Source: Mobula hypostoma (taxonomy: Eukaryota). Taken from it: a stretch of DNA of 64,000 bases. The notes under the pieces are model-generated. The model searched no databases, was not told the origin of the DNA, and saw only the letters and a program-made list of their open reading frames with translations. A program made the translations under genes and the position numbers. Where the stretch lies: the NCBI RefSeq assembly GCF_963921235.1, contig NC_086097.1, positions 174,780,001 to 174,844,000 on the forward strand. The letters run 5' to 3'. Shown here in pieces: positions 1 through 64,000 of this stretch. Position 1 is the stretch's first letter; every line of letters starts with the position of its first letter.

Positions 1-1095
1 ACTTGTGCTCTCTCACCCATGCCCAGCAACCCTTTTAATGTGAATTCCTGCATCCCCAACTCCCTTAATTTATTTCTCATCATCTCTCTCATACTTCCTG
101 CAACACAAAACTACATGTTCTACTGACTCCTCTTCCTGACATTCCTCACACAATCCTGTCTGGTGTTTCTCTATCATTTTCAATGTTTTGTTTAATGCAC
201 AATGCCCCAGCCTTAACCTAGTCCACACAATTTCCTCTCTTCTGTTTCCATTACCTACCCTAGTAACTGCAACACTCTTTTGTATTTGATATAAATGCCT
301 CCCTTTCCCCTCCCTGTCCCATCTTTCTTGCCACATTCGGTTGACTTTTTCCCAGATTACACACTTAACCTCTGCTTTACTGATACTAATGTGCATTTCC
401 ACATTTTCTTTCTTTAACGCCCTCTTTGCCAACTCATCCACCCTCTCATTCCCCTTCACCCCTACATGTGCTGGAACCCATAGAAATTTTACCTGACCTC
501 CCTGATTTGCAATTCTTGTAACTAACTGAAGGACTTCGTAAAGTACATCTTGCAGACTGTTTGTGTGAAAAGACCTTAAACTTGCTAGAACTGAGGACGA
601 ATCTGAACATATCAATGCTTTGGCTTGTCTGGCTTTCTGCACCCATTGCAACGCAACCAACACTGCCAGCATCTCCACTGTAAACACCCCTAACTTATTA
701 GATGTTCTTCTGCTGATTCCAATTTCTTTTGCTGGTATTACCACCCCAAACCCTGTCACTCCTGTTTCAGGTTCCTTCGCACCATCCATATAAATGTGAG
801 TATAATCACTATACTTTTCCATCACATGACAGTTAAATGCATTTACCAAATCTGTTTTATATCTTTCTTTCCTTTTTACCTCTAACAAATGCCAGTCTAT
901 GTCAGGCCATACAAGCTTCCATGGAGCTACAACTGGATAAACTACTGAAGGACTTATCCTCAGATCAAACACTCCACATTCTTTCGCGATATCATTCCCT
1001 ACCCGACTAAAGGTATCCCTCTGAAACCTCCCATTTTCCCAGCACTGCTGCAACACTCCTTTAGTAGGGTGAGAATCATTGTGCCCCTGCAAGAA
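1..1095 (-). mobile_element. I-group (Nimb-like) LINE, 3' fragment: RNase H plus C-terminal CCHC knuckle (ORF 70-1092)
   Basis: ORF has RNase H motifs YMDGAK, EMLAV, CSDS, WVPAHVGVKGNERVDELAK, then RLRLGH and CEECQEEESVEHVVLCC. This order is typical of I/Nimb ORF2 ends. Confidence 0.85.
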
Positions 1096-1099
1096 TCCC

Positions 1100-1980
1100 G
1101 GCGATGATCTTTACGTGCCTGAGTACTCGAGCTGTTCACTTAGGAGTGATTGAGTTCATGGATGCATTTAGCTGCACTAATGCACTGAGAAGACTCTTTG
1201 TCTGTGGTCCCTTTACAAGGCTATACTCTGACTGTGGTATGAATTTTGTTGGTACTTGCCATGAACCTGAGATCCAGAAAGTGATGGAAGACTCTAAGGT
1301 GCAGAGGTATATTAACACCCCAGGCTCCACTAGGGACTTTAATCCACCACACTCCTCACACATGGGCAGGGCATGGGAGCACATGATCGAGGTGTCGTGG
1401 AGAATCTTGGACTTTCTGCTGATGTACATATGATTTTCCAGCTTGAGTCCTGAGGTCTGTGCACTCTCATGGCAGAAGTAATGACTATTATCAACTGGGG
1501 GCCATTGGTTCCAGTCTCTGCAGATGCAGACTCACCTTTGATTCTCACTCCTGCAATGCCTCTCATACAGAAGCACAGTGCACCCATCCCCAAATAGAAA
1601 CTTTAAAGAAAGGGACCTCTATACACAGCACTGGCATTGAGTGCAGAATTTACTGATCAATTCTGGAGGCAATAGAAACAAGAACATCTGTAGACACTGC
1701 ATGTTCACCACAAATGGCAAGAGTCATGATCTAACGTTGAAGGTGATGTCATGCTTCTGAAAGACAGCAGTGGAACCCAAAATGACTGGCCCATGGCATT
1801 AGTAACATGCACCTTTCCAAGTGAAGATGGAAGAGTTTGCAAAGTAGACAAGGCAGAGGTCAAGCAAGAAGCTCTTCAGGCCTATGTCGGAGATTGTTCT
1901 CCCTCTGAAAAAGTAGGACTGAACTTTGTAACTTGTTCCATTAACTGTTTGTAGTATCTTTATAGATGTCAGGTGGGGAG
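1100..1980 (+). mobile_element. BEL/Pao LTR retrotransposon, decayed integrase region
   Basis: IFTCLSTRAVHL, LYSDCGMNFVG, FNPPHSSHMGRAWE and WPMALVT.TFPSEDGRV are BEL/Pao integrase motifs; interrupted by stops. Polypurine tract (aggtggggag) ends at 1980. Confidence 0.85.
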
Positions 1981-2591
1981 TGTTCAAGCTTACTTGTTAA
2001 CTAATAATACTGTGGATTTTATTTTGAAATTCCATTGGACCACAACAGGAAGGTAGCCATTTTTGTTTATAGTAGTGTTTTTCAGTCGACTGAAGCACAC
2101 GTACTCAAATCGGTGCTGCCTTTCTTTTGTCTGTGCCCTCGAAATCATCATCTGCAGGTGTTGTTTTAGTTCATAAACGAAAACACCATCTGAGCAATAT
2201 GTTGTATTAAAATTACATAAAAGTTTATTCCTGATTGTTAGCATAGTGTTTGACCAGCCTTGGTAACTTAAAGAAATGTTTACATGATATTAATCTCCTT
2301 GCATACTTTAAAACTTTCTTTATTCACATTGCATATAATTCTTGGATATTTTACATTAGTTTAGCTTCATATATTCCTAATTTCTTCGGAATGTGTGCTT
2401 AATTGTCATAAGTTTGCTGCATTAAGTGCCCATGGTACTTTTCTGTTTCTCATTCAGTTTTACTCCTATTCAATTGTATATGTAAGTACTGCCCAATAAA
2501 GCACATGGAGCTTGGAGCAATATCCTGACTCCTGTATTCAACTGAGTAGAGTTTGGCTTGCTGCTGAATTGTGTACTTCCTACTTCACACA
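1981..2591 (+). mobile_element. 3' LTR of the BEL/Pao element
   Basis: Begins TGTT immediately after the PPT, contains AATAAA (~2495) and ends near ...cacaca. The 3' end is uncertain by a few bases. Confidence 0.6.
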
Positions 2592-4574
2592 CAAAGAGAG
2601 CAGTACAGTTCCACTTTAAATCTTTCCCCTCTCAACTTAAACCAATGCTCTCTAGTTTTAGACTCCCCTACTTTGGGGAAAAAAGTTTGTGTCCACCTAC
2701 CCAGCTATGCTGCTCATTATTTTATAAACTTATAAATAGAGCTCTCTGCCCTAATGAAGGGAATAAACGTCGACTGCTTATTTCCTTCCGTAGACAGTGC
2801 CTTACCTGTTGATTTACTGCACCCATTTTGTGTGTGTGCTCTGGATTTCCAGCATTTGCAGAATCTCCTTGTGTTTCTAATTGTTAGCATTCTGTTATTG
2901 CTTTCTCCTCTTGCATTACCTCAATATACTTGCGTATGGAATGATGTATCTGGATAGTGCTCAAAAAGAGAACTTTTCACCGCATCTTGGTGCATGTGAC
3001 AATAATATCATCATGATCTGAGTTTACAATAGACCATGGCTGATCTGACTGTAACCTCAACTCCATGTTTTAATTTATGCTGGTAACCTTTCACACTCCT
3101 TGCTAAAGAAAATCTAAACCTTACAGACTTTAAGGATCTCAACTGGTCCCTTTTTAACATGAACAATAAAAAATACACAGCACTACTTCAAATTACAGCA
3201 CAAACATAGGTGGTTTGGTGGGACTAATGATCTACTGTGGCCTTGATCTATCCTTCCCCAGCGAACTCTCCTGGCAAACTTGCTCTTTTCTTTGTTCTCA
3301 CACATGCTCCATTTTCTTCCTAAATACTTCTATGCTCTTCTTTCCAGTCTACTGTTGCGAGATTTTAGCTTCGGTGGTAGATCTGGGAAGCTGCTCTGCT
3401 TGGAGTAAAGGGGTCAAAAATGGACAGTGGAAATGGACAAGATCATGATTAGTTTAGACAGGGTTTAGGAAGCCATCCTCATTAGAGTCATAGTTATAGT
3501 CACAGAGCACCACAGAATCAGGCCCTTCTGCCCATCCAGTCCACACCAACCTGGTTTTCTGCCAAGTCCCATCTACCTGCACCCAGACCATAGCCCTTCA
3601 TATCTCTTCCATCTATGTACTTATCCAAACGTCTCTTAGATGTTGCAAACAAACCCATATCCATCACTTCTAGTGGAAGCTTGTTCCATACTCACACCAA
3701 CCTCTGAGAGAAGAAGTCTCTCCTCAGGTTCCTCTTAAGTATTTCACCTTTCATCCTGAACCTATGACATCTAGTTCATACAGTTTGAGAGAAAAGAGCC
3801 TGTGTGTATTTAAGCATCTATATACCCCTCATAATACTGTATCCTTCTATAAGATCTCCCCACGTTCTCCTGTGCTCCAGGGAAGCAAGTCCCAACCTAT
3901 TCAACAACTTCCTATAACTCAAGTCCTCAATTCCTGGCAAAATCCTTATAAATGTTCTCTATGCTCTGTTGAGTTTGGTAGATGGATTATGGACCAGGAC
4001 ATGGATTTAACCATTTGGACAAAAGAAAGAAGAGGAATGTGAGAAAAAAAAACTTCTGTTTAGACTTCATCATTCCAAACTTTCCAAATCACTGCTTGTG
4101 ATGGAAACCAAATCCACTTGGGCTTTTGAAAGGAAATCCAACATGCACTTAATATATAAAAAATCGTAGGGGAAGGGCAGGGATTGGCACAGAAAGATTT
4201 TGATGGACTAAATTTTTTCTTCTGTACAAATTTTGATACTCCCACAAATGGAGACAGTCAGAGAGAGAAATTGATGCTTGGTTGAAAAGGCAGTCATCTG
4301 TACTCCCCAACGTATTGGAGTCCTTTTGGATCAGAATGTGTGGGGTAAGTTAGTCCACAACAAATACCTGAGCACATGTTTAGCACCAGAAGCCAGAAAA
4401 TCAAAACATTTTCTACACTCAGTACGAGCAGTACCTCAACATTGGAAGCTGCAAGAGGTCACATGACTGCTCAAGTGATCCAGAGAAATGGCTCATCAAA
4501 AGGAATAGGAACAAGTTACACAATAAAAGCTGGGAAATTGAAATTTACTTAACTAGACTTGGGTCTATTGTTGA

Positions 4575-9290: not shown

Positions 9291-11709
9291 ATAACCATAT
9301 AACGATTACAGCACGGAAACAGGCCATCTCGGCCCTTCTAGCCCGTGCCGAACTCTTACTCTCACCTAGTCCCACTGACCTGCACTCAGCCCATAACCCT
9401 CCATTCCTTTCCTGTCCATATATCTATCCAATTTAACTTTAAATGGCAACATCAAACCTGCCTCAACCACTTCTGCTGGAAGCTCGTTCCACACAGCCAC
9501 CACTCTCTGAGTAAAGAAGTTCATCCTCATGTTACCCCTAAACTTTTGTCCTTTAACTCTCAACTCATGTCTTCATGTTTCAATCTTCCCCACTCTCAAT
9601 GGAAAAAGCCTATCCACTTCAACTCTATCAATCCCCTTCATAATTTTAAATACCTCTATCAAGTCCCCCCTCAACCTTCTACGTACCAAAGAATAAAGAC
9701 CTAACTTGTTCAACTTTTCTCTGTAACTTAGGAGATGAAACCCAGGCAACATTTCAGTAAATCTCCTCTGTACGCTCTCAATTTTATTGACATCTTTCAT
9801 ATAATTCGGTGACTAGACCTGTACACAATACTCCAGATTTGGCCTTACCAATGCCCTATACAATTTCAACATTACATCCTAACTCCTATACTCAATGCTC
9901 TGATTTATAAAGGCCAGCATACCAAAAGCTTTCTTCACCACCCTATCCACATGAGATTCCATCTTCAGGGAACTATGCACCATTATTCCTAGATCCCTCT
10001 GTTCTACTGCATTCTTCAATGCTCCACCATTTACCATGTATGTCCTATTTTGATTAGTCCTACCAAAATGTAGCACCTCACATTTTTCAGCATTAAACGC
10101 CATCTTTTAGTGCGCATGCGCCGGTCGTGCATGCAGCCTGTTACAGCCGCTCCGACTGGTTTTCTTATTTTTTTAACTTATGTTATTTGTTGTATTTTTT
10201 TTCCGCGGTAACACGTTGAAGCTGCACCCTCTCTAACATGCTGGTGGAGAGAGTTTTATTTGGGTTTTTAGTGCTGGAAATAGTTATATTCGGACACGTC
10301 TCATTAGCGGGGCAGAAGCATGGTTGCATTGTTTATTCCAGGGACCAGCTGTTTGCGCTTATGCCGGCCGGTTTAGCCAACGGAGTGGCGGACACCCCGG
10401 CTGAAATCTGGAGGAAAACACACAGAGGATGCAGAGGGGTGTCAAAAAGGCGAGGAAAGAGGACCGGGTCCAGACAACAAAGACTTATGGAGAAGAGGAG
10501 TTATAAGCCATGTCTTCCCTCTCTCATTATGGGCAATGTGAGATCGCTGGGTAATAAAATGGACGAGTTGATGGTGCTAGCCAGGAGTCAGAGAACATTT
10601 CAGGAGTGCAGTGCTATGTGTTCTACTGAAACGTGGCTGCACGAGGACATACCCGACCAAAATGTTTCCACAGAGGGCTTCCAGACTGTTTGGGCTGACC
10701 GGAAGTGCACTGAGAGCGGTATGCGTAAAGGAGAGGGGCTTGCTGTCCTGGTTAACAACAGAAGGTGCAATCCTGGTCAGATTATGATCAAGGAACGTGT
10801 TTGTAGCCCGGATATTGACCTTTTTGCTGTTGGACTCCTGCTATATTCCACCGAGATACAACACTGGGCATCACGGGAGGTTGTTCCTGCCTGTGGCCAT
10901 CGAACTTTGCAGCTCGTCCCGTGGAGGGTCAGACACCCTGAGCCAATAGGCTGGTCCTGGATTTATTTCCATCTGGCATAGTTTGCATATTGTTGTTTGA
11001 TTGTTTGTGGTTTTGTATTGCTATATTTATGCTCTATTCTTGGTTGGTGCAGCTGTAACGAAACCCAATTTCCCTCGGGATCAATAAAGTATATCTATCT
11101 ATCTATCATCTGCCATCTTTCAGCCCACTCTTCTAACTGGCCTAAATCTCTCTGCAAGCTTTGAAAACCTACTTCATTATCCACAACGCCACCTATCTTA
11201 GTATCATCTGCATACTTACTCATCCAATTTACCAACCCATGATCCAGATCATTAATATATATGACAAACAACATTGGACCCAGTACAGATCCCTGAGGCA
11301 CACCACTACACAACTGTCCTCTAATCTGACACACAGTTATCCACCACTACTCTCTGGCGTCTCCCATCCAGCCACTGCTGAATCTATTTTACTACTTCGA
11401 TATTAATGCATAACAATTGAACCTTCCTAACTAACCTTCCGTGTGGAACCTTGTCAAAGGCCTTACTGAAGTCCATATAGACAACGTCCATCGCTTTACC
11501 CTCATCAACTTTCCTAGTAACCTCATTAAAAAATTCAATAAGATTTGTCAAACATGACCTTCCACGTGCAAATCCATGTTGACTGTTCCTAATCAGACTC
11601 TGTCTCTCCAGATAATTATATATACCATCTCTAAGAATACTTTCCATCAATTTACCCACCACTGACGTCAAACTCACAGGCCGATAATTGCTAGATTTAC
11701 TCTTAGAAC
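9291..11709 (-). mobile_element. CR1 LINE, 5'-truncated RT/3' end, interrupted by a Rex1 insertion
   Basis: [40 protein letters not shown] and RRRLRGDLIEVFKI; 3' tail (ataaccat)n at 9291. Confidence 0.9.
10106..11106 (+). mobile_element. Rex1/Babar-like LINE: 5' end (APE N-terminus) fused to 3' end, RT missing
   Basis: ORF 10238-10981 has YSRDQL, LPSLIMGNVRSL.NKMDEL and TETWL. It then switches (~10845) to a 3' end matching the Rex-type fragment at 57715-58100, ending in aataaag(tatc)n. CATCT is duplicated at 10101-10105 and 11107-11111. Confidence 0.8.
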
Positions 11710-11893
11710 CAGGTTCATGTCATCAGGTTGGAGACTACCTAGTTAGAATATGAGGTATTGTTCCACCAACCTGATCGGTCTCATCGTTTCAGTAGAGGAG
11801 GTTATAACCAAAATCTTGGAATGGGAATGGGAAGTTGAATTGAAATGGGTGGCCACCAGAAAATCCCACCTTGTGTGGTGAACAGAGCAAATA

Positions 11894-12187
11894 CAGTTGA
11901 AGTCAGAAGTTTACATACACCTTAGCCAAATACATTTAAACTCAGTTTTTCACAATTCCTGACATTTAATCCTAGAAAACATTCCCTGTCTTAGGTCAGT
12001 TAGGATCACTACTTTATTTTAAGTCTGTGAAATGTCAGAATAATAGTAGAGAGAATGATTTATTTCAGCTTTTATTTCTTTCCCAGTGGGTCAGAAGTTT
12101 ACATACACTTTGTTAGTATTTGGTAGCATTGACTTTAAATTGTTTAACTTGGGTCAAACTTTTTGGATAGCCTTCCACAAGCTTCTC
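11894..12187 (-). mobile_element. Tc1/mariner right end (IR/DR plus transposase C-terminus), Sleeping Beauty/salmonid-subfamily-like
   Basis: TA then cagttgaagtcagaagtttacatacaccttagccaaatac (outer DR); inner DR cagtgggtcagaagtttacatacact at 12084-12109; minus-strand EKLVEGYPKSLTQVKQFKVNATKY* at 12187-12113. Confidence 0.9.
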
Positions 12188-12751
12188 TCTTTTGCCGAAC
12201 CAAGTTTCCAATATCCCTTGAAAACCATGGCTCTCTCAAACTTTTAACCTTTCCTTTCAACCTAACAGGAACATAAAGATTCTGTACCCTCAAAATTTCA
12301 CCTTTAAATGACCTCCATTTTTCTATTACATCCTTCCCATAAAACAAATTGTCCCAATCCACTCCTTCTAAATCCTTTCGCATCTCCACAAAGTTAGCCT
12401 TTCTCCAATCAAACCTCTCAACCCTGGGTCAATCTATCCTTCTCCATAATTATATTGAAACTAATGGCATTGCGATCACTGGACCCGAAGTGCTCCCCAA
12501 CACTAACCTCTGTCACCTGACCTATCTCATTCCCTAACAGGAGATCCAACACTGCCCCTTCTCTAGTTGGTACCACTATGTATTGCTGCAAAAACAAACT
12601 ATCCTGCACACATTTTACAAATTCCAAACCATCCAGCCCTTTTACAGTACGGGCTTCCCAGTCTATGTGTGGAAAATTAAAATCTCCCACAATCACAACC
12701 TTGTGCTTACTACAAATATCTGCTATCTCCTTACAAATCTGCTCCTCCAAT
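12188..12751 (-). mobile_element. CR1 LINE endonuclease fragment
   Basis: VVIVGDFNFPHIDW, PTREGAVLDLLLGNE, GSSDRNAISF. Confidence 0.85.
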
Positions 12752-12942
12752 TCGACAAAATAAATATTAGAGCCCAAAATCTTGATCAGGGATATTATTC
12801 CTTGTGATAAAGGATAGCGACATTATAATGATGAGAAATGAAAAAATTTACAGAGTGTGGGCAGAAAATCAGAATCAATTGCATATAAACTCTAAAGTTT
12901 AATGAGTTTGAAAGGAATACAGTACTCAAAAGCCTCTCTCAC

Positions 12943-13076
12943 AATGTACACTAATCTAACATTGCTGACTGGATCACTGCACTGCTTTTCCCAAATTACA
13001 TTGAGTTCATTTCTTGCAGGATACAGTGTGCGGAATAAACTGCATAATACAACCTTGTTCATTATTGATGGTCTTC
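12943..13076 (-). CDS. Candidate coding exon (RPSIMNKVVLCSLFRTLYPARNELNVIWEKQCSDPVSNVRLVYI)
   Basis: Unique sequence with acceptor ...ttgttgtcag and donor gtgaga; one open frame. Phase is not directly compatible with the neighbouring candidates. Confidence 0.25.
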
Positions 13077-13359
13077 CTGACAACAAATGGGTAGCAATGT
13101 TTTACCCTAACACCACTTCATCATTACAACCCATGCAACCAGGCTATGACCAGAACATTCAAAGCTGACTGCCTACAGGTGGAATGAGACATTTCATTTC
13201 AAAATCAAGCAATAAAAAAACTCACCAGACAGATGGCTAAGATTATCATGATAACTATAGGTTACATCAGTCCTGAGATCACCTAACCCATGCGACAACG
13301 AGTAGTATTTGAAGAAGAGTACGACCAACATTGGTGCACAACTCCCTTGAGTTTACACA

Positions 13360-13520
13360 CCTGAAAGGATGTTGTCAAGTTGTCAGATGAAGCTGGGTTT
13401 GTTGAAATAGTGGAAAAGTTAACAGAATTTCATGACAGATAGCTGACAAATGCCGATCACTTACAGCTACATAGAAACACCACACCACACTGAACAACCA
13501 TTACCCATTTTCAAAGACAA
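13360..13520 (+). mobile_element. pogo/Tigger-like transposase C-terminal remnant
   Basis: DVVKLSDEAGFVEIVEKLTEFHDR*LTNADHLQL resembles the Tigger LA..GF..V...L..H..ELT..DL..L segment. Confidence 0.45.
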
Positions 13521-13853: not shown

Positions 13854-15479
13854 TTTATTTAAATAAATAGTGCAGCATTAAATGTGAACACAGGATTTTT
13901 ATTGATGCACCATAGAAAGGATTCTATCCGGGTGCATTATAACTTGGCATGGCAACTACTCTGCACGTGATTGCATGTAACTGCAGAGTGGTGTAGACAT
14001 CAAGAAAACCAGCCTCTGCTCCTTGGACTCTGTCTGTACTTCTCACTGCCTCAGTAAAGCAGCCAGCATAATCAGACACCCCATCCACCCCAGACATTCT
14101 CTCTTTTCCCTTCTTTCATCTGCCAGAGAATACAAAAACCTGAAAGCAGGCCGATTTGGATTCAGGTGCAGGCTGAAATGTGGTGGCTAGGTCCAGGCCC
14201 AGAGTGAATCAAAGCGACAGGGCACGGTTCCCAGAGCAAAGAACGACCTGATGTTTGGACGATTTAAATGCCTGACCAGATTGAAAAGACAGGGCGTTGG
14301 GAACAGAGGTGAGGGTTAAGCTGGTTCTCCTAGTTGTTCCTTGATGTTTACTCAGCTCTGCACTGAACTGAGGCTGAAGCTGTGGCCTGCTCCAGGCTTT
14401 GTGTCTCTGAACACGATGTTTTACAGTCTTTTTTTAAAAAATGGGTATTTTTCGGCTTCTTTGTTTTGTGACTGCCTGCAAGGATACGAATCTCAAGGTT
14501 GTATAATGTATATATGCTTCGATAATAAACGGATTTTGAACTTTGAAATTGTCTTTGAGCCTAGTGGTACATGCTTTCAGACTGTTGTATCTTCTGCCCA
14601 GTGGGAGAGTGGAGAAGATTACAGATTGGCATGGTTGATTTTTAAGACTATTATAGTCCTACACTCTGATAGGACTACTTAATAGTATGCTAATACAGCC
14701 TCTACCTCGTTATGATCTTGACACTGGAAAACATGGATTCTTTCCCAAAACATGGATCTTTTCGGAGCCATCTCTCAGCAAAAGCTTTTATAGAGTTTTA
14801 CAGCATGGAAGCATGCCCTTTGGCCAGTCTGAACCATGCTAATCTGTATCTTCTCCCCTCTCCCATTGGGCCAAAAATATAAAAGCCTGAAAGCTTTGTT
14901 ATAAGACTATTAAATGGTTCCGTAATGTAATAAAATTGACTCTTGACCTTGCAGCCTACATTGTTACGATGTTGCACATTACTGTCTACTTGTATTGCAA
15001 TTTCGCTGCATTCTGTTATTGTTTTACCTTGTTTTAGCTCAATGCACTGTGTAATGATTTGATGTGTATGAACATTATGCAAAACAAAGCTTTTACTCCC
15101 TTAACCTAATTATGCATGGCATGATTTGTTTGGATGACATGCAAAACAAAAGCTTTTCACTGTACTCACTCCAAGGTACAGTGAAAAGCATTTACTCCTG
15201 ATGATAATAATAAACCAATACTAACGTTTTTTTTCCTCAGTAGTTACATCTTTTCAAAATAAATTCATAAGCTTTTACATTGAAGTACCACTTAAGAATT
15301 CTCATTTAAATCAACATTTTCTGAGGACGCATCCCTTTAATAAATGAAGAAATGACTGAATGGATCATTCATAGAGTCATTGATTTATACATTTGTGGAA
15401 ATGGTTTCTTTTTGTGCAGTGAATTCCTTGTAACTTGTCCAACACTGATGACATTTCAGAGCAGCAGAGCTATCCTTAC

Positions 15480-17900: not shown

Positions 17901-18322
17901 CAAGTGTTAGGTGTTAAGGACAGAACCTCCAGAGATGTGATCTCAAGACTGTGATAACAGGTGATTTTAACTTTACACATATTGGCTGGGACTCCTATAC
18001 TGTAAAAGCACAAGATGGGATAGAGTTTGTCAAATGTGCTCAGGAAAGTTTCCTTAATCAGTATGTAGAAGTCCCAATGAGAGCCTGTGCGATACTTGAA
18101 TTGCTTATAGGAAATGAGATAGGGCAAGTGCCAGAAGTTTGTGTAGGTGGACACTTTGCACGTAGCGATCATAATGCCATTAGTTTCAATGTAGATATGG
18201 AAATGGATAGGTCTGGTCCACAGGTTGAGATTTTTAGTTGGAGAAAGGTCAATTTTGATGGAACACACATAAAAGTTGCTGGTGAACGCAGCAGGCCAGG
18301 CAGCATCTCTAGGAAGAGGTGC

Positions 18323-18358
18323 AGTCGACGTTTCAGGCCGAGACCCTTCGTCAGGACT
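18323..18358 (-). ncRNA. Minimal type I hammerhead ribozyme (Penelope-associated)
   Basis: AGUC-CUGACGA-AGG(GUCUCGG)CCU-GAAA-CGUC/GACU: intact core, helix I AGUC/GACU, palindromic ACGU helix III. Confidence 0.85.
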
Positions 18359-19965
18359 GAGACAATGGCCTGGTGCTCGTTAGTGGGGTCACGATCGAGG
18401 GGTAAATAAGAGGAGGTATCCGTGAGTTGTCGCTGTGCCTCGGCAAGGTAGAGGTCAGTATGCCAGACTACAACAGCACCCCCCTTATCGGCGGGTTTAA
18501 TAATAAGGTTAGGATTAGTGCGGAGGGAGTGGAGAGCAGAGCATTCCGAAGGAGTGAGGTTGGAATGGGGACAAGGTGCGGTGAAGTTGAGACAGTTGAT
18601 GTCCCATCGGCAGTTAGCGATAAAGAGATCCAGAGCAGGCAGAAGACCAGAGCGGGGTGTCCATGAAGAAGAGGAGGGTTGAAGACGGGAGAAGGGGTCA
18701 TCGGTGGGGGTGGAAGAGTCCTTGCCGAAGAAGTAGGCTCGGAGACGGATACGGCGGAAGAAAAGTTCCGCATCATGGCGAACACGGAACTCGCTGAGGT
18801 GTGGGCGAAGGGGGACAAAGGTGAGGCCCTTACCGAGGACAGAGCGTTCTGCCTCCGACAGTTGAAGGTCAGAGGGGATGGTAAATACCTGGTATGGATG
18901 AGAGCTGGGATCAGAGAGGGGAGGGGGGAGGCTGGGGGTGTCAATGGAGAGGGGAGGGTTGGGGTGAGAGGAAGATGGAGCCTCTGAGGACCCAGGAGCT
19001 GACGATGGGATCTGAAGGAGACGGGATTGCAGAGTATTGGTGGGGGAAGGGGAGACGGGAGTCACAATAGCAGCACATAAAGACCCAGCCTGGAGTTCAA
19101 GGCTGGAATCTTGAGAGCTGGGATCAGAGGCGGGAGGGGGGAGGCTGGGGGTGTCAGTGGAGAGCGGATGGTTGGGGTGAGAGGAAGATGGAGCCTCCGA
19201 GTACCCAGGAGCTGACGGTTGGATCTGAGGGAGACGGAGTTGCAGAGTGGTGGTGGGGGAAGGGGAGACGGGAGTTACAATAGCAGCACATAAAGACCCG
19301 GCCTGGAGTTCAAGGCTGGAGTCGCAGTTGGTGGTTGTGCAATCACTTTGAATGTCTCCATGGTCGTTGCTGGAGTCCGGGTTTTGAATATGCCCTGGAG
19401 TGTTGGAGCCGGTGAGATCAATGGCAGAGGCCGCAATCTGAAGTTCATGCCTGCTAGTTTTAGTGCCAGCAGGCTCTGGAGTCCGTAGATGTAGGATCTT
19501 GCGATCTTTGCCTAACATGACAAAGTCAAAAAAATGGCGATTGCAGGCGTGAATCCGACGGAGGATGAAATAACGGGTAGGACCATTACAGACGGCGAAG
19601 AAAATGTCCCGAAGGTGTGGAAGGGTCTGGGATAGGGACACCAAGTACCTCCTCATGGCGGAGAGAGTCGCCTTCAGAGCTTGACGGGAGAAGCGGTGAG
19701 AGGCAGAGTCAATAAAATGTGAGTACCTGGGATCCTCAGAAGGTCCAAATTGAGAGGCTCGAAAACGAATCCTGAAGCCAACTGGAGTAAGTTGGCGGCG
19801 GAGGCACGTTCCAAGAAAGGATATATGGCTGTGATAGCGAGTCTGAGTCAAAGTGTGGTCGAAAAGTTGAAGAGCCGAAGAAATTACAGATGGGGAGCAG
19901 TGAGAGATGGTTTCACTGAACTCCCGTTGAAGAGAGGATCTAAACTTCTTCGGTGTAGGCATCAC
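18359..19965 (-). CDS. Penelope-like ORF N-terminal part (uninterrupted), ending shortly after the IKPADKG motif
   Basis: HISFLGTC, SVLGKGLTFVP, FFRRIRLRAYF, NLTPSE, IIKPADKGGAVVVW and YLAEAQRQL are PLE pre-RT motifs. The annotated ORF continues to 18169 only by read-through into the terminal repeat and flank. Confidence 0.85.
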
Positions 19966-21116
19966 CGGAAGAGGCTTCGCAGTAGTGAATTTAAAAACGC
20001 AAACAACAGGAATTCTGCAGATGCTGGAAATTCAAGCAACACACATAAAAGTTGCTGGTGAACGCAGCAGGCCAGGCAGCATCTCTAGGAAGAGGTGCAG
20101 TCGACGTTTCAGGCCGAGACCCTTCATCAATTTTGATGGTGTGGATTTGGACAGGTTGTTTACTGGCAAAGGTGTACTTGGTAAATGGGGAGTCTCCAAA
20201 AGTGAAATTTTGCGAGTACAAATCTTGTATGTGCCTGCCAGAATAAAAGGTAAAGATAACAGGTTTAGGGAACCTTGGTTTTCAAAAGATATTAAGGCCC
20301 TGGTTAAGCAAAAAAAAGGTTGGTGTATAGGGATACAATAGGGTCTTTTAAGAGCCTCTTAGATAGGTACATGGAGCTTTGAAAAAGAGAGGACTATGAA
20401 CTAGGGAAGTTCTAGGCAGTCTCTAGAGCAGGTTACATGGTTCAGCCAACATTGTGGGCCCAAGGGCCTGTAATGTGCTGCAAATTTCTATGTTTGATGT
20501 TCTAAAAGGTGGAGGAGAATCCCAAGGGATTCTACAGATTTATTAAGAGCATAAGAATTGCAAGGGACATAATTGGTCCTCTGGAAGATCAGAATGGTAA
20601 CCTATATTTGCAGCCAAAAGAGATGGGGAAGATCTTAAATGGATTTTTGGCAGCTGTATTTATTTGGGAGACAGACACAGAGTCTATAGAAGTGAGGCAA
20701 AGCAGCAATGAGGTTATGGACCCTACACAGATTATAGAGGAGGAGGTGTTTGGTGCCTTGACGCAAATCAGGGTGGATAAACCCCAAGGGCCTATTAAAG
20801 TGTTCCCTTGGGCCCTGTGGCAGGAAAAGGCAGAAGTTGCACAGATAGTTAAATCATCCTTAGCGACAATTGAAGTTACCAGAGGCTTGAAGGATAGCCA
20901 ATATTGTTCTGTTGTTTAAGATAGGCTCTAAAAATAAGCCAGGAAATTATGGGCCTGAAAAGCGTGACATCAGTAGTGGGAAAGTTATTGGAAGGTATTC
21001 TAACTGACCGGATATATGAATATTTGGATATACATGGACTGATTGGGGATAGTCAGCTTGGCTTCGTGCGTGGTAGGTCATATCTAACCAATTTTGTAAA
21101 TTTCTTAAGACCATAA

Positions 21117-27538: not shown

Positions 27539-28189
27539 AATATCTTCTCCTTCTTGATGGACTTAATTTTGGGATAGTAAACTAGACTTCAAATCCCAGC
27601 TGGGAATTTTAAATTCAGTTTATTAAGTAAGTCAGATAGTTTTTAAAAGACAGTTCTGACAACGGTGACCACAAAACCACAGGATAATCATTCTGACTGG
27701 TTACATCACAGCCTGGTAAGGAGGTTCCATTGCACAGGATCGGATCACAGGGCTCCCCACCATCAAGGACATCTTCAGGAGATGGTACCTCAAGAACACA
27801 GCATCCATCACTAAGGACCTCACTATCTGGGACATGTCTTTTTCTCATTGATTCTGCTGTCCTTAACCAGTCTGGCTTTTATGTTCAATATGTGCCCAAA
27901 ACCGTCCCCTGAAATGGCCCAGCAAACTGGGTATATCTGCAAATAAGCAGCGGAACTGCCACAGCAGTTGAAGGAACTTCCTACTGCCTTCACGAGGGCA
28001 ATTAGGGACGGGTACACCCTCACCCCCCTGGGAGTTAGGGATGTAAATGTGACTACATCACATGGGACGGATGGGCATTGCTGGTGTGATCACGTTCCAA
28101 GAGAATTTGAAGAGTAGAAGAGAATGGAAATAAGTGATTCAGTCCAACTGGTCCATACTGACTAATGTGCTCATCTAAATTAGACCCAT

Positions 28190-28822
28190 TTCTCTGTCCG
28201 CCAAAGAAAGCAAGATCTCCCAGTGGCCACACATTTTAATTCCACATCCCATTCCCATTCTGATATGTCTATCCATGGCCTCCTCTACTGTAAATATGAA
28301 GCCACACTCAGGTTGGAGGAACAACACCTTATATTCCATCTGGGTAGCCTCCAATCTGATGGCATGAACATTGACCTCAAACTTCTACTAATGCCCCACC
28401 TCCCCCTCGTACCCCGTCTGTTATTTATTTATATACAAACATTCTGTTTCTCTCTCTCCTTTTTCTCCCTCTGTCCCTCTGACTATACCCCTTGCCCATC
28501 CTCTGGGCTTCCCCCTCCCTCTTTTCTTTCTCCCTGGGCCTCCTGTCCCATGATCCTCTCATATCCATTTTGCCAATCAACTGTCCAGCTCTTGGCTCCA
28601 TTTTTCCTCCTCCTGTCTTCTCCTATCATTTTGGATCTCCCCCCCCCCCCGCCACTTTCAAATCTCTTACTAGCTCTTCTTTCAGTTAGTCCTGACGAAG
28701 GGTCTTGGCCTGAAACGTCGACTGTACCTCTTCCTATAGATGCTGCTTGGCCTGCTGCGTCCACCAGCAACTTTTATGTGTGTTGCTTGAAATTCCAGCA
28801 TCTGCAGATTTCCTCGTGTTTC
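28190..28822 (+). mobile_element. Penelope-like 3' fragment (GIY-YIG tail, pyrimidine-rich spacer, terminal repeat)
   Basis: VATHFNSTSHSHSDMSIHGL...RLEEQHLIFHLGSLQSDGMNID is the PLE endonuclease C-terminus. Confidence 0.9.
28688..28723 (+). ncRNA. Minimal type I hammerhead ribozyme
   Basis: AGUC-CUGACGA-AGG(GUCUUGG)CCU-GAAA-CGUC/GACU; predicted cleavage after C28719. Confidence 0.85.
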
Positions 28823-38142: not shown

Positions 38143-41100
38143 TGTTGTGTATTTAATATTTCAGTAATATTTGAGTAATGTTGTAAATATATTGTGAAGC
38201 ATTCTTTGTTCATTTAAATAATTCATTACTGGTTATATGTAAAAGTATGTGAATGGCATACGTCATCATGCTACCATGTCATACGTGCACACCTTAAAGT
38301 AAAAAACAAAACTAAGACGTGCATTCTCGGCTCTGTGCTTCCTATCAATTAATTTTATGTTTTGGTGTTACAAAGCATAACAGTGCTGATGAGGAAGTTT
38401 TAAATGAACCCGAGATGACTACTTACCTGTTGAAGAACAGTGAGATGTTTTGAGTTTTTTAAAAAAAAAGCACAATGAGAAATGATTGAGTAAAAAAAAC
38501 AGTGCAGCACCTGATTCCTTTGGAAAAGGAGACAGTCAAGTAAAAAAGGCAGAAAATGGACTAAATTCACACATTCATAAACAGTAAGTATCAGGTGATG
38601 AGCATAAATAAAAAGATAAAGCTGAAAAGGCTGGCTGCATCGGAAAGATGGGTATGTTTGATTACACAAGAGGTAATAGGAAAACCTACACTGAATGAAT
38701 TGAATGATATTTTGAAGCAAATGAAATATTCAATGAGAAGTGAGTGCTAGCTTTGTTGAGTGCATTGTGTGGAAGAGCATAGAGTTTACTTAGAAGTTTA
38801 ACTGCTCTAACCAAACCAACTGAAATGAGCTTTGCTGATGTCATGAAAGTAATGCAGGAATATTTAGAACCAAAACCGTTGTTGACTGCAGAATGCTTTA
38901 GGTTTTATAAGTGGAATCAAAAGGAAGAGGAGTCCATTTCAGCATACGTGGCTGAATTGAAGAAATTGTCTGAGTGTTGTCAGTTCTTTGATGAGCTTAG
39001 TGATCTTTTACTTTATGGAATCTTACATGAAAGTATTCAAAAACGGCTCCTAACTGAAGCACGGTTTACATTTAAAAGAGCAGTTGAAATTGCTGTACCA
39101 ATGGAAATAGCAGACAGAGGTGCAATTGAGTTGCAGTTAGGAATGAAAGTGAGCACAAACAAAATTGTAACATCTAAGCAGAAAGTGGAAGGGCAGAGCA
39201 AATTGTGTTACCATTGTGGCAGTGGCTCACATTCAGCAGGCCAATGCAGGTTTAAAGGTGAAATCTGCAGAAAATGCAACAAAGTCAGATACATAAATAA
39301 GTAAATGGACTGCACAGGGAAAAAGATAACAACATCAAGTTCCAGTTTTAGAAAGAGATCTAACCTGCATGCTGTTGATTTAAAAACTTTGATAATGATG
39401 AGAGTGACTCAAGATTTGGTAGTCTTGAGCTTTATAATGTGAAAACTAACAATAGATGAGCAGTATAGCTTACACCAAAAGAGAATGGCATATTAATTTA
39501 AGTGGAATTGGACACTGTCTCGGCTCTCTCAGTCATTCCATAAAAAGAGTTTGAACAGCATTTCAAAGATACCGAACTGAAGCCTGCAGATATCCAACTA
39601 AGAACTTATACTGGCAAGAAAGATAACTCCTGTGGGAATGACATTCGTAATAGTGAAATACAACCACCAACAAGCCGCAATAGGAGTGCCAGCTTTGTGG
39701 GGGTGCAGTTGGTTGAGACATCTACGACTTGAGTGGAGATCCGTCCACCATTTTCATGCTACATCCTCTGCAGTAGAGTCAACAACGCGAATCAAGAAGG
39801 GTACTGGATAATGCCACAGCACTGGAAAACTCAAACATATCAGGGGTAAAGTCGTGTTAAATGAAACGGCCACACCCAAATTTTATAAAGCCTTGTACCA
39901 TCGATGATAAAGTAGCTAGTGAGCTAGATTGCATGAAGGCTGAAGGAATTCTTTCTGAGGTTGAGTGGAGCTAAAGGGTAATGTCAGTAGTCCCAGTATG
40001 CAAGAAGAATGCGTCTGTCAGGATCTGTGGTGATTTTAAGGTCACCATCAGCCCAATGCTGAAAGTAGATCAATACTCTCTGCCCAGGACAGAGGACGTC
40101 TTTGCAAACCGCTATGTATGGAAACACTTCAGCAAAGTGGACATTGCTGAGGCTTACCTACAGATGGAGATGGAAGAAGAGTCCAAAGTGTTTCTCACCA
40201 TAAGTGCCCACAAATAGCTTTATGACTGTCATGGGCTTATTTTTTGACTAGCATCTGCACCCGTACTCTGGCAGAAAGCGACAGATCAGTTGTTGCCAAG
40301 TACTCAGTGTTACCCGGATGACATCATTATTACTGGTAAGGATGTCAAGGAACATCTCCAAAATCTCAAGAGAGTATTAAAAAGATTAGAAGAGTATGGT
40401 GCATCAAGTGCAAATTCTTTACTGTGAATTCTTCACTGACTGTGAAACACCATCAATGCACAAGGGTTACACAACTGTGCTGAGAAAATTCTAGTAGTGG
40501 TGGATTCTCCAAGGCCAAAGGACATTTCACAGTTGTTATTCTTTTTAGCATTTGTCAACTACTGTAATAGATTCCTGCCAAACCTGGCTACTGTGCTCCA
40601 CCCCTTGAATTCATTACTATGGACCAGGAAGAAATGGCACTGGACAAGGCAATGTCAGGTTGCTTTCCAAAAGACGAAGGAAATGCTGACATCAGACACT
40701 GTATTCACACATTATGATCCACTGGTAAAACTAGTGGACCTTGCTTGTAAAATCCTGCCTTTTGGTTCAGGTGCAGTCATGTCACAGGTTATGAGTGATA
40801 GAAATGAACGCCCCATAGCCTTTGCATCGTGTTCCCTTGCCTCAGAGAAAAATTATGCACAGATTGAAAGAGAGGTCTTGAGTCTGGTTTGGGGTGTAAA
40901 ACATTTCAACCAGTACTTGCGTGGGAGAGAAATTACTCTCATTACTGTTCATCAACCACTAGTGTCCATTTTCAATCCACTAAAAGCAGCAGCACGAGTG
41001 CAGAGATGGGCTTTGTTTCTTGGAGGACACAATTACTAGATCAGAGTCAAGAGGACAACTAATTGTGGAAATGTTGATGGATTGTCCCTTTTACCTTTGG

Positions 41101-42087
41101 AAAAGGAAATAACTGAAAATTTACAAAAGAGGGCATTCCTCTTGGCGGATTCTCCCTAATGCAAATCAGAGATCTCCCTTTTATGGCAGAGATGATCTAA
41201 AGGGAAATCGGAAAAGAACCTCACTATCCAGCTCTTCATGCCATCTCAAAATGGCTGGAATGTGCAGCAGGAACTCTTGTTCCCTCCCCACTTTTTTTTT
41301 AACCAATGCAGGGATGAACTTACCTTTGAAAGAAGTTGCCTTATGTGGGGATTGAGAGTTGTTGTACCATCGAAGCTGGGAGTTATAGTGTTGGAGGAGC
41401 TAGATGCTGGTCATCTAGGTGTGGTCCAAGTGAAAGTGTTGGCTTAAAGCTTTGTCTGGAGGCCTGAGATAGATCAGCAGATCGAGCAGCTTGTCATGAA
41501 CTGTTCGAGATGCCAACACGTCCAGAAGAAAGGTGTCCAGAGCTGTCAGAACCACTTCCTGCAGTCCCAGAGTCAACTCCTACAACCATCACAGAGGAGG
41601 CCCCAGAACTTGAGATTGTTTCACAGCCACAAGTCTCACCTGCCAAAAAGAGTAACCCTCCTTGTCAGAAAAGATATTATCCCACAAAAGTAAGAAATCC
41701 TCCGCAGCGATTAAATCTATAGGTCTGAATGGAACAATCTAAAATTTACTCTGCTATTGATGTCTATATACGTAGTAGTTGTATTATATAGTATACTGTG
41801 TGTGTATAAAATAGTTGAGATGGATTCTATATTGAGGGAGTTCATAGCTAAGCAGGGAGGAGTGTCGTGTATTTAATACTTAAGTAATATTTGAGTAATA
41901 TTGTAAATGTATTGTTTGGTTATGCATTCTTTACGGGTTATATGTAAATGTACATGACTGACATACAATATCATGCCACCATGTAATCTGTGCATGTCTC
42001 GCTAAAGTAAAAACAAAACTAAGACGCGCATTCCTGGCTGTGTTTCCTTTCAGATGCTTTTATGTTTCAGAGTTACAAATCATAACA
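38143..42087 (+). mobile_element. Gypsy (Mag-like) LTR retrotransposon with both LTRs; decayed gag-pol, integrase core deleted
   Basis: LTRs 38143-38382 and 41863-42087 (TG..CA); PPT aagcagggaggag; TSD catag/cacag; gag CYHCGSGSHSAGQC; protease ELDTVSA; RT RICGDFK and YPDDIII; RNase H EKNYAQIERE. Confidence 0.92.
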
Positions 42088-53935: not shown

Positions 53936-55682
53936 AAACAAGAGAAAACCTGCAGATGTTGGAAATCCAAGCAACACACACGCAATGCTGGAGGAGCTCA
54001 GCAGGCCAGGCAGCATCCATGGAAAAAGCTATCGTCGATGTTTTGGGCTGAGACCCTTCGGCAGGACTGGAGGGAAAAAAGATGAGTCAGAGTTAGAAGG
54101 TGGGGGGAAGGGAGCACAAGGTGGTAGGTGAAACTGGGAGAGGCAGAGGGGGTGAAGTAAAGAGTGGGGAAGTTGATTAGTGAAAGAGATGCAGGGCTGG
54201 AGAAGTGGGAGGCTGAAAGAAGAGGACACAAGGCTGTGGAAGAAAGAAAAGGGGGAAGAGTACTAGAAGGATGTGATGAGCTGGTAAGGAGATAGGTGAG
54301 AGAGGGAAAAGGGAATGGGGAATGGTAAGGGAGTTGTGGGGGGGTGCTTTACTGGAGGTTCAAGAAATCAATGTTCATGACATCAGATTGGAGGCTACCT
54401 GGATGGAATATAAGCTGTCACTCCTCCAACCTGAGTGTGGACTCACTCTGCCAACCTGTTACTTGTATTATACCTTTTCCGACCCTCTTACTTGTAAAAA
54501 CGCTGTCCCCTTCTCTCAATTCCTCCATCTCCACTGCATCTGTTCTCAGGATGAGGTTTTTCATTCCAGAATGAAGGGATGTCCTCGTCCTTCAAAGAAA
54601 AGGGTTTCCTTCCTCCACCATCAACGCAGCCCTTAACTCCATCTCTTACAGTTCACGCACGTCTGCCCTCACCCCATCCTCTCACCATCCCACCATGGAT
54701 AGGGTTCCTCCTGTCCTTACCTACCACCCTACTAGACTCCGCACCTAGCACATAATTCTCCATAAATTCTGCTATCTCCTATGGGATTCCACCACCAAGC
54801 ACATCTCCCTCCCCCCGCCAAACATTCTGCTCACCGCAGGGATCGCTCCCTTCTCGACTCCCTTGTCCGTTTGTCCCTCCCTACTGGTGCCTCTGGCACT
54901 TATCCTTGCAAGCAGAACACGTGCTACACCTCCTCCCTCACTACTATTCAGGGCCCCAAACAGTCCTTCCAGATGAAGCAACACTTCACCTGTGAGTCTA
55001 TTGGGGTTATCTACTATATCCGGTGCTGCCAGTGTGACCTCCTGTATATTCGTGAGACCTAATGTAGATTGGGAGACCGTTTCGCCAAGCACCTAAGCTC
55101 CGTCCACCAAAAAAAGCTGTATCTCCCAGTAGCCACCCATTTTAATTCCACTTCCCATTCCCATTCCAACATGTCAGTCCATGGTGTCTTCTACTGTTGT
55201 GATGAGGCCACACTCAGGTTGGAAAAGCAACACCTTATATTCTGTCTAGTAATCTGCAACCTGACAGCATGACCATTGTTTTCTCGAACTTCCAGTAATG
55301 CTTTCCACTCTCCATCAGCATCCCCCATTTCCTTTTCCCTCTCTCACCTTATCTCCTTACCTGCACATCACCTCCCTCAGTGCTCCTCCCCCTTTCCTTT
55401 CTTCCATGGCCTTCTGTCCTCTCTTATCAGATTCCTCCTTCTCCAGCCCTTTATCTCTTTCGTCAGTCAACTGCCCGGCTCTTCACTTCACCTCTTCCCC
55501 TTCCTCCTGTTTCACCTACCACCTTGTGTTTTTCCCTCCCTTCCCGCCCACCTTCTAACTCTGACTCCTCATCTCTTTTTCTCCAGGCCTGATGAAGGGT
55601 CTCGGCCCGAAACATCGACTATACTCTTCTCTATAGATGCTGCTGCCCTGCTGCGTTCCTCCAGCCTTTTGTGTGTGTTGCT
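53936..55682. mobile_element. Penelope-like insertion with inverted structure (minus arm ~53936-54446, plus arm ~54447-55682)
   Basis: Plus arm has PFSQFL, FTCESIGVIYYIRCCQCDLLYIRET and ATHFNSTSH (GIY-YIG). Both arms end outward in a terminal repeat with a hammerhead-like motif. Sits inside a CR1 ORF1 end. Confidence 0.85.
55585..55620 (+). ncRNA. Minimal hammerhead motif, partly degenerate
   Basis: AGGC-CUGAUGA-AGGGUCUCGGCCC-GAAA-CAUC/GACU; core intact, helix I and the helix III palindrome mutated. Confidence 0.65.
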
Positions 55683-61875: not shown

Positions 61876-64000
61876 AAACAAACACCCAAAGGCAGGAAGG
61901 AACCCACGTGGCTGGAGTATGAGGGAGTGCTGTGTTGCTGTTTGTTTAAATTACTAGATTAGTTGTCCGCAGTATATGAATTCACAGCTCTGGGATTCAA
62001 ACTTCGGCAAGGTCGGTCACTCGAGGGCGTGGATCGAAGTGGGGGGGTTGGAGGGGACCTGAGTGGGAGAGGTCTGAAGCTCGCAGCCTGAGAGGCTGGT
62101 TGAGGGAGAAACCCTCACTATATTTAAAAAGTGCCTGGAGGTGTCCTTGATGTGCTGTGACTTACAGGGTCCAGTGCCAAGAGCTGGGAAATGAGAATAT
62201 GCTAAAACACCTCTGTTACCAAAGACTCCAGCTATGCATGAATTTCTCTGATTATCTGTTTAGTATATGCGGAATGACCCGCAGATTATTTTTAAAATGC
62301 ACAACAGTACAATACAAGATCAAGCCCTTCTGCCCACATTATTATGCCGGATTACTTAATGACGTACTAGTTAAATAAATCCCTTCTGCCGTATCTCTCC
62401 ATTCTCTGCATATGCATGTGCCTATCTAAGAGCTCTTAGGTGCCTTGTAATTGCCTCCACCACCGCCTCTGGCAGTGTATTTCAGGCACCAACTGCTCTG
62501 CGTGTAAAAGAAAAACTTGCCTTGCACATCTCCTTTAAATTTTCCCTCTCACCTTAAACACATACCCTCTAGTGTTAGACAGTTAGACTCGGGGAAACAG
62601 ATATCTACTGTTTATTCAAACTATGCCGCTCATAATTTTATAAAATTCTGGCAGGTATCCCCTTAGCTTCCACCCCTGCGGCACATTTTTGGCACCTAAT
62701 TAAAGAAATCCCTATACCGCTGCCGTAACACAACAAAATTTCCAGTCATATGCCAATGATAACAAATCTGTTTCTGATATCCATATCTCTCTGTTCTCTA
62801 TAACCTCAGCAGGAGTTCCATCACCTACCTCTTCTGATTGCTATGTGTGTAACTGTAAATTGAACGTAAAAACTGACTGTGGCTCCTACCATTTTACTGG
62901 TGTTGCATTCATCAGGAATGTGATCGAGTCATCACTCAAATCACACTCAGCTTACTCCAGATACTCTCCATTTACTGCTCCCTGGATTGTGTGAGAGTTG
63001 AGACGTAATCAGCGCCACTCAGTAGGAAATGGAGCCTGCTAATAGATGCTGACGGCAGAAACTGTGCTAATAGTGTTGCAGGTATCTGTAGCAAGGAAAA
63101 TTATTAGGCAGGCATTCCAGGTAGTTACAGCTCGGGTTTCACTGTTGGGATTTGCAGAAACATGCAATAACTGCCCTGAGCAATTCATCCCTGGTCAACC
63201 GCTTCCACTTCAACTACCAGAGCTCAAGACGCTGTGTTTTAAAAAAAAATCTCTTCTCACCACCACCCTCCCCCCACTGGTTTTTCCAACCGTTATTGTC
63301 AATCTGTGCCCTCTGAGAGTTACTGACCTTCCTGGGAAAACACGCAAAAAGATGGGAGCAGGAGTACTGAAAAGTTGATTTTATTGTTGGATGCACAAGT
63401 GCAATGAAAAACTTATCGCAGCAGCTTCAGATTCAGATTTACTTCCACTGACTTAGATGATTTGTTGTTTTGTGCAGCTGCACAGTGCAAAGACATAAAG
63501 TTACTACAAATTACAAAAATTAAATAGTGCCAAATAAAGGAATTACATGGAGCCATCACAGGTACGTAGATATAGAGGCACAACATTCACATGAAAAACA
63601 TAATTTAAAGATATACAAAATTATACAAGGTACGGCACAACATCGTGGGCTGAATGGCCTGTACTAAAGAACACAATTAGAAAAATAAATAAAGTCCATT
63701 TAGTGCCGTTGCGGTACTGAGGCAGTGATTAATGTTGTGCTGGTTGGTTCAAGGATCGAATAGTTGAAGGGAAATAGCTGTTCTTGAACCTGGGCAGGTG
63801 GGATTTCAGGTTTTTGTTCCTCCTGTCTGATGGTGCCTACATCTTGGGAGTAAGTTAAATGAACAACTACCCATCAACATTGCTCTTCAGCAACAGATAA
63901 GCATTTTTGTCATTGGTTGTAAAGTTTTAGAAGGTGCCAAGATAAGATCCAAAAAGGAAATTGTCAGATATTGGAAAGGTAAAAGTGGGTTTAGCATTGA

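Follow-up and report, generated by a model that had tools for sequence, protein, structure and literature searches.

The DNA analysed here, a window of 64,000 nt, carries at 11894–12187, on the minus strand, the right end of a Tc1 element of the Sleeping Beauty (SB) clade, as identified by alignment and by inspection of its repeats. The end is set among retroelement sequences; in the list below, DNA identities of the transposon refer to L001, a metagenome contig described further on, and the protein identity to SB100X.

11107–11714, continuing to 9296–10105 past another insertion, minus strand: reverse-transcriptase part of a CR1-like LINE (Pfam RVT_1, E 8e-13)
11715–11891, minus strand: decayed 3' piece of a Penelope-like element, 177 nt, 72–75% identical to copies at 28189–28369 and 55097–55280
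11892–11893: TA dinucleotide abutting the element end; half of a target-site duplication, the other half being absent
11894–11925, minus strand: outer direct repeat of the right IR/DR (31/32)
11926–12081, minus strand: non-coding spacer of the right IR/DR (151/156), with a 9-nt deletion at its inner edge (about 12079/12080)
about 12082–12113, minus strand: inner direct repeat of the right IR/DR, 3 bases altered at its inner edge
12113–12187, minus strand: C-terminus of an SB-clade transposase, last 24 codons and stop (70/75 nt; 21/23 aa)
12187/12188: break from SB similarity to CR1, with losses of about 1,340 nt (element) and about 0.5 kb (CR1)
12188–12753, minus strand: endonuclease part of a CR1-like LINE (Pfam Exo_endo_phos_2, E 2e-7), 72–75% identical to other copies in the window
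12754–13500: single-copy flank outside the element, the control for depth and divergence

A one-ended transposon among nested repeats

The outer and inner direct repeats claimed by the original prediction are real, their cores (11902–11923 and 12090–12111) being identical at 21 of 22 positions. The outer repeat is the site at which the transposase binds and cleaves. Inward of the repeats, the minus strand from 12187 to 12116 encodes EKLVEGYPKSLTQVKQFKVNATKY, closed by a stop codon at 12115–12113. Together, 11894–12113 amount to 220 nt plus the 9-nt deletion, with two direct repeats, the layout of the SB-type inverted repeat of ~230 bp with two direct repeats of ~30 bp (PMC5224488). The prediction had spoken of a TA-flanked IR/DR: the TA is present at 11892–11893, where one side of the insertion survives, but with only one end a single TA is visible and the duplication lacks its second half. 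The same TA-adjoining terminus recurs with different flanks in contigs of three of the organisms whose reads are treated below (A, B, and C), the pattern that independent insertions would leave. BLASTN and TBLASTN of L001 against the 64-kb window match 11894–12187 only, and no other part of the SB element or its protein was found there. The copy thus has no left IR/DR, left-end enhancer, catalytic or DNA-binding domain, nor most of the 340-aa ORF; lacking these, it is a dead remnant that shows no sign of function and cannot move alone. For SB substrates with a single end, the integration rate in cell culture is about 0.54% (PMC5224488).

Both CR1 arms have the same orientation and are collinear around the SB end. 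Compared with the CR1 copy at 29.3–30.7 kb, about 0.5 kb of CR1 is absent between them, and read-derived contig pieces show loose ends at position 12187. We infer that the ~1,340 nt of the element and the ~0.5 kb of CR1 were lost in a single deletion. An end-mediated, transposase-driven deletion was considered and set aside, as the break lies inside the element and not at a TA; microhomology at 12187/12188 amounts to at most 1–3 nt by eye and is not claimed. The piece at 11715–11891, which from its peptide motif we take to be a Penelope/GIY-YIG 3' end, is the likely target of the SB insertion. Such an insertion is favoured, though short of proof, because the Penelope copy at 55097 continues past the end of similarity and has a TA just beyond it (one base on, against three in the window). 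Similarity in the 28189 copy ends near this position too, which would suit a piece ending naturally at 11891; that reading is disfavoured, since the 55097 copy runs on. The order of nesting would then be CR1, Penelope into CR1, and SB at a TA within Penelope. A later single deletion, reaching from the transposase gene into CR1, would have taken the left end, most of the transposase and the rest of Penelope, leaving a remnant that may have decayed neutrally ever since. The transposon end of the original prediction thus holds as an SB right end, refined to the one-ended remnant of a nested insertion and a deletion.

Other repeats crowd the window, in which Rfam found 0 matches. The same CR1 is interrupted at 10106–11106 (plus strand) by a 1-kb insertion with a 5-nt target duplication (10101–10105/11107–11111) and a short tandem tail, presumably Rex1/Babar-like. 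Its ORF at 10220–10978 is endonuclease-like, with no Pfam hit and with Atlas neighbours that include an Exo_endo_phos cluster. Depth over the 5' part of this insertion is 40–500x higher in organisms A and B than in C and E, which suggests a lineage-specific burst of young age and makes the insertion a second transfer candidate. A single-copy stretch at 12896–13400 (plus strand), common to A, B, C, and E, has no Pfam hit; we take a motif in its translation to be that of pogo/Tigger-type DDE transposases. Nested inverted arms of a short repeat occupy 14573–14636 and 14832–14894, with another copy at 14102–14148. An ORF of 346 codons on the minus strand at 73–1110 contains an RNase H domain, which we assume to be of non-LTR type, and a decayed Gypsy-like LTR retroelement with reverse transcriptase, RNase H and integrase pieces lies at 38783–41690 (plus strand).

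Relationship to Sleeping Beauty

Aligned with SB100X (PDB 5CR4), the last 23 residues of the peptide are identical at 21 (E 4e-8), the sole match among 177,635 PDB sequences; the value given in the original prediction is correct. At the DNA level our references were not a pT/pT2 vector record but two metagenome contigs found by a terminal-motif scan, L001 (the same contig as L002) and L003. Each carries a complete 1,639-nt element with inverted ends, and the two are identical at 1,626 of 1,638 positions (12 differences, 0.7% apart). Unbroken over 340 aa, the L001 transposase corresponds to the SB domains of solved structure and agrees with the pT2/Gene-Trap vector transposase (AFR53956.1) at 336/340 residues. 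It falls in 90% clusters with proteins named from Oncorhynchus, Salmo, and Hucho; judging by these protein clusters, L001 and L003 would be salmonid-type elements. Besides the SB-type element (1613–3251), L001 holds at 1–1612 another, distinct Tc1 element, whose ORF of 350 codons (220–1272, minus strand) is unbroken; the two abut head to head at one shared TA.

The SB end in the window matches the right end of either reference at 280 of 294 positions (95.2%), with one 9-nt deletion, so that the low identity to SB which the prediction had named as its refutation was not seen on real alignment. Differences from L001 comprise 7 transitions and 7 transversions (K2P 0.049), and the local alignment scores 505, against a maximum of 29 across 200 shuffles. 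By part, identity is 212/219 in non-coding sequence, 151/156 in the spacer and 70/75 in coding sequence; the close match to the SB right IR/DR, spacer included, is therefore upheld, as measured on L001 rather than pT/pT2. The left end of L001 aligns at 79% with 40 gap columns, against 95% for the right.

When the peptide was ranked against 205 homologs, the 14 closest scored 21–22 identities and included the vector protein, one Oncorhynchus protein and 7 more that are at least 97% identical to L001. The characiform/sparid sister group scored 18–20 and clusters at 66–71% scored 12–14. Over its 24 residues, then, the peptide is nearest to SB and not to SB-like or other Tc1 transposases. The terminal 27 nt are, by eye, one base off the SB primer in PMC5224488, and the terminal motif, likewise compared by eye, matches the SB primers printed there and in PMC6446368; between SB and SB-like elements, TIR identity is given as 33% (PMC9777934). 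A search of a plasmid collection with the element end returned no match, and the terminal motif had 0 matches in GTDB genomes and viral contigs, a result uninformative on vectors.

Sleeping Beauty was reportedly rebuilt from natural salmonid-type Tc1 elements. The window end resembles it (SB10/SB100X), and the salmonid-type elements of its origin, in its IR/DR, its TA and its terminal motif, in direct repeats about 190 nt apart and in matching a complete copy of natural type at 95% of DNA positions. It differs in having one end, a 9-nt deletion, a likely ray host and E for G. By peptide and end sequence it belongs to the SB clade of DD34E/Tc1 described by Jia et al. (2022, PMC9777934).

The host genome and the abundance of the family

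The repeats around the end have a cartilaginous-fish character. The CR1 reverse transcriptase adjoining the SB end is 67–71% identical to proteins of named sharks, versus 56% for a crane and 59% for a turtle. These values come from 10 of 120 listed matches that were looked up, which gave 3 clusters with a named member; the top match is a cluster in which Heptranchias perlo is the sole named source, and Rhincodon typus accounts for two of the EukProt matches. Chondrichthyan CR1s are described as monophyletic, forming their own clade, and the available text of the same source reports no clear evidence of young canonical CR1 in non-Elopocephalai teleosts (PMC13343379). Six kilobases from the SB end, a Penelope ORF (18343–19962) has its best matches in Hypanus sabinus and Hemitrygon akajei, with Mobula hypostoma the most identical over a short stretch. 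In shared windows, rays reach 82–88% (at least 56 residues covered), bar one at 76%, against 63–75% for a bamboo shark and 46–54% for a sea cucumber. The surrounding 620-codon Penelope-like frame (18172–20031, minus strand) contains a ~212-nt tandem duplication (18899–19110/19112–19323, 92%). A ray host accounts for flanking CR1 and Penelope proteins that match those of sharks and, best, those of stingrays and the devil ray. On these repeat proteins, the host is very likely a myliobatiform ray, and the elasmobranch genome and host-type repeats of the original prediction are supported, the proteins on either count being closest to those of sharks and rays. Penelope elements can themselves undergo transfer.

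Pfam domains that passed cut-offs in 321 scanned ORF entries were all of retroelements, and no host gene was identified among these entries (some repeated; the window has 573 non-repeat ORFs of at least 38 aa). Thiamin pyrophosphokinase was tried as a host marker at 63831–63998 and rejected, its E of 0.002 falling below the cut-off. A ray-finned host in which the SB element is an ordinary resident could appeal to this lack of an identified host gene in the scanned ORFs. Two unrelated retroelement families, one of them directly flanking the SB end, nevertheless point to cartilaginous fishes, and no teleost-named protein appears among the 120 CR1 or 34 Penelope matches listed, most of which are nameless. 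We attach almost no probability to a ray-finned host.

Part of 10500–13500 is contained in 20 runs from 10 studies. Depth was analysed in 4 of 23 listed runs, from four studies, one for each of organisms A, B, C, and E. The single-copy flank has a depth of 16 in A, 52 in B, about 20 in C and 8 in E; in the element bin 11914–12014 the corresponding depths are 218,000, 659,000, 32,000, and 68,000. The ratios of element to flank are thus about 13,400, 12,700, 1,600, and 8,400, where summed contig depth is not copy number. With respect to the criterion of PMC7070016 that guards against contamination (five or more copies per clade), three contigs with other flanks and these depth ratios would point to many copies. 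Contamination, against which the original prediction had argued, becomes very unlikely because depth is 1,600–13,400x single copy in 4/4 runs from four studies, and the SB end reads as that of a native family, apparently of high copy number.

Teleost or vector DNA stitched in at the SB end during assembly is likewise very improbable, even if several observations could be read in its favour. Neither junction (11891/11894 or 12187/12188) is bridged by reads in any of the 32 pieces listed (from a set with 174,610 further pieces), and SB-type DNA does occur as a passenger in unrelated assemblies, such as the metagenome contigs L001 and L003 and the 222-nt contig that encodes a 73-aa SB-type protein labelled Edwardsiella. 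Such an artefact would have to coexist with the depth in all four runs and with the same end on other flanks. It would also have to explain 14 private changes and the 9-nt deletion, while L001 and L003 differ from each other by 12 in 1,638, and CR1 arms that are collinear on both sides of the end. Were two native repeats misjoined locally, the nesting history would change but the presence of the family would not. As for the Edwardsiella tarda protein (P0400, 73 aa, 222-nt contig), it clusters with SB-type transposases and is probably fish DNA in a bacterial assembly.

Probable transfer between fish classes and its direction

How far the element has diverged can be set beside the DNA that adjoins it. 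The single-copy flank differs from the window by 0/777 in A, 5/586 in B, 41/747 in E and 45/552 in C, that is, by 5.5–8.2% among close relatives of the host (E, C). The element differs from L001, spacer included, by 4.8% (95% interval 2.6–7.9%). With 24 codons in the copy, this comparison is a proxy only for the Ks criterion, by which an element must fall below the low tail of core-gene Ks over at least 100 codons (PMC7070016). The split between bony and cartilaginous fishes is placed at about 381 Ma (PMC10787021) or before 421 Ma (PMC3692497). Since DNA transposons evolve neutrally within their hosts (PMC7070016), 95% identity should not survive some 400 My of vertical descent. The argument of the original prediction from non-coding identity is thereby strengthened (151/156 in the spacer; 4.8% in the element, below the up to 8.2% of the flank). 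We therefore have little doubt that the SB family was transferred horizontally, in one direction or the other.

Inheritance from the jawed-vertebrate ancestor would demand slow evolution or selection on binding sites. Cartilaginous fishes do offer a precedent for the former, as their HoxA evolves at least 2.4 times slower than that of tetrapods (PMC3692497), and the direct repeats would be constrained for as long as the element was active. Yet the spacer, which lies outside the binding sites, is equally conserved (151/156), and adjoining single-copy DNA is already 5.5–8.2% apart between the host's close relatives. The teleost branch by itself would be expected to exceed 5%, and the flanking CR1 protein is just about 70% identical even to shark copies. 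The chance of vertical inheritance is accordingly close to nil.

Under horizontal transfer, the family likely entered the ray lineage, from ray-finned fishes or from a carrier shared with them, a direction that the data support weakly. An ancestral ray would have acquired an active SB-lineage element in its germ line, and cut-and-paste by SB transposase, with TA sites as targets, may then have raised the number of copies to thousands. The reverse or an indirect course is improbable; in it, the SB stem element would first have resided in rays, or in a third lineage outside the sampling, and would have passed to salmonids and other teleosts later. Some features of the copies would suit such a course. 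Four example copies from ray-like organisms stand about 8–12% from the window copy (picked examples, not a sample); set against the 0.7% between L001 and L003, this suggests that the burst in rays is the older and that of the L001 type the younger. In addition, the first residue kept in the window peptide is E (before KLVEG), as in the characiform/sparid group and protein P0126, with G in L001 and SB100X. Further along, the peptide shares K and A with SB proper, a stem-like combination in which the E rests on one base at the break. Against a ray origin, the named sister lineages (81–86% to L001) are all in teleosts, no named chondrichthyan transposase occurs among the 120 listed of 439 matches or the cluster members listed, and the SB clade spans 33 ray-finned orders, with no detection reported for Chondrichthyes in the available text of PMC9777934. 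With entry into rays retained as the favoured direction, the donor was not necessarily a salmonid. If the copy decayed as fast as its flank, it would date from about the time when the host and organism C diverged, within the ray radiation, an estimate drawn from one copy and one flank.

Comparable cases are known. The SB clade has been recorded in 107 Actinopterygii of 33 orders and in one mollusc, with horizontal transfer in 71 of 108 SB-bearing species; in the text of that survey, its species Table S1 excluded, no SB is given for Chondrichthyes, whose sole record there is a ZB-like element labelled Calmil, which we read as Callorhinchus milii (PMC9777934). DTSsa1-type Tc1 elements shared by lampreys and teleosts (Kuraku et al. 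2012, PMC3516227) are similarly of salmonid type, cross classes and reach thousands of copies in a non-teleost, with about 92–98% identity across vertebrate classes. By the available text, PCR did not amplify them from cartilaginous fish, thornback ray included; we take them to be a different Tc1 family from the SB end in the window. Lampreys offer a parasite route for such transfer, whereas rays have no obvious one. TcMar elements make up 2.3–3.3% of ray and skate genomes, 0.14% in sharks and 0.33% in sawfish, with at least one burst in rays, a contrast that would favour entry from fishes into rays. The source in its available text leaves families unresolved, does not use the word horizontal and ties the burst to body shape (PMC12361510; preprint 10.1101/2024.05.27.594570). 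At least 975 transfer events have been counted in 307 vertebrate genomes, 93.7% of them involving ray-finned fishes (PMC7070016). Sharks and cartilaginous fishes go unmentioned in the available text of that study and of a 247-genome animal survey, as do Tc1, TcMar and horizontal in that of 10.1101/2025.06.08.657570 and PMC10787021. Salmon shark gave PCR bands for other salmonid-like Tc1 elements, without a sequence tie to SB (PMC12441823). In the literature searched (without subscription papers, Dfam or Repbase), we found no report of an SB-clade element in rays. Most ray assemblies probably postdate the 2022 SB survey, and the automatic repeat libraries of ray genomes probably contain this family already, nameless.

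Transfer of Tc1 elements among fishes is already well known; what is new here is the class of the host. The finding adds, at an apparently very high copy number, a class without SB in the dedicated survey. The family would also provide a concrete and datable origin, foreign and recent, for some of the surplus TcMar in rays, and a burst that postdated the origin of batoids would weaken the link between TcMar and body shape. Rays fertilise internally, and many bear live young, so that their case tests a role for external fertilisation. The latter has been proposed to explain the transfer hotspot in teleosts (10.1101/2024.12.18.629015). One further scenario, which we hold to be doubtful but not far-fetched, is an SB invasion of rays, live-bearing and internally fertilising, during their radiation and ahead of the salmonid-type burst; that invasion would have fed much of the Tc1/mariner expansion that sets rays apart from sharks. 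External fertilisation would then be unnecessary for massive transfer into the germ line of fishes, and rays would be an old, slowly decaying archive, perhaps even the source, of the SB stem, in which near-intact natural SB copies might be retained. In any event, slowly evolving ray copies may help to establish the age and the root of the lineage behind a gene-transfer tool in wide use.
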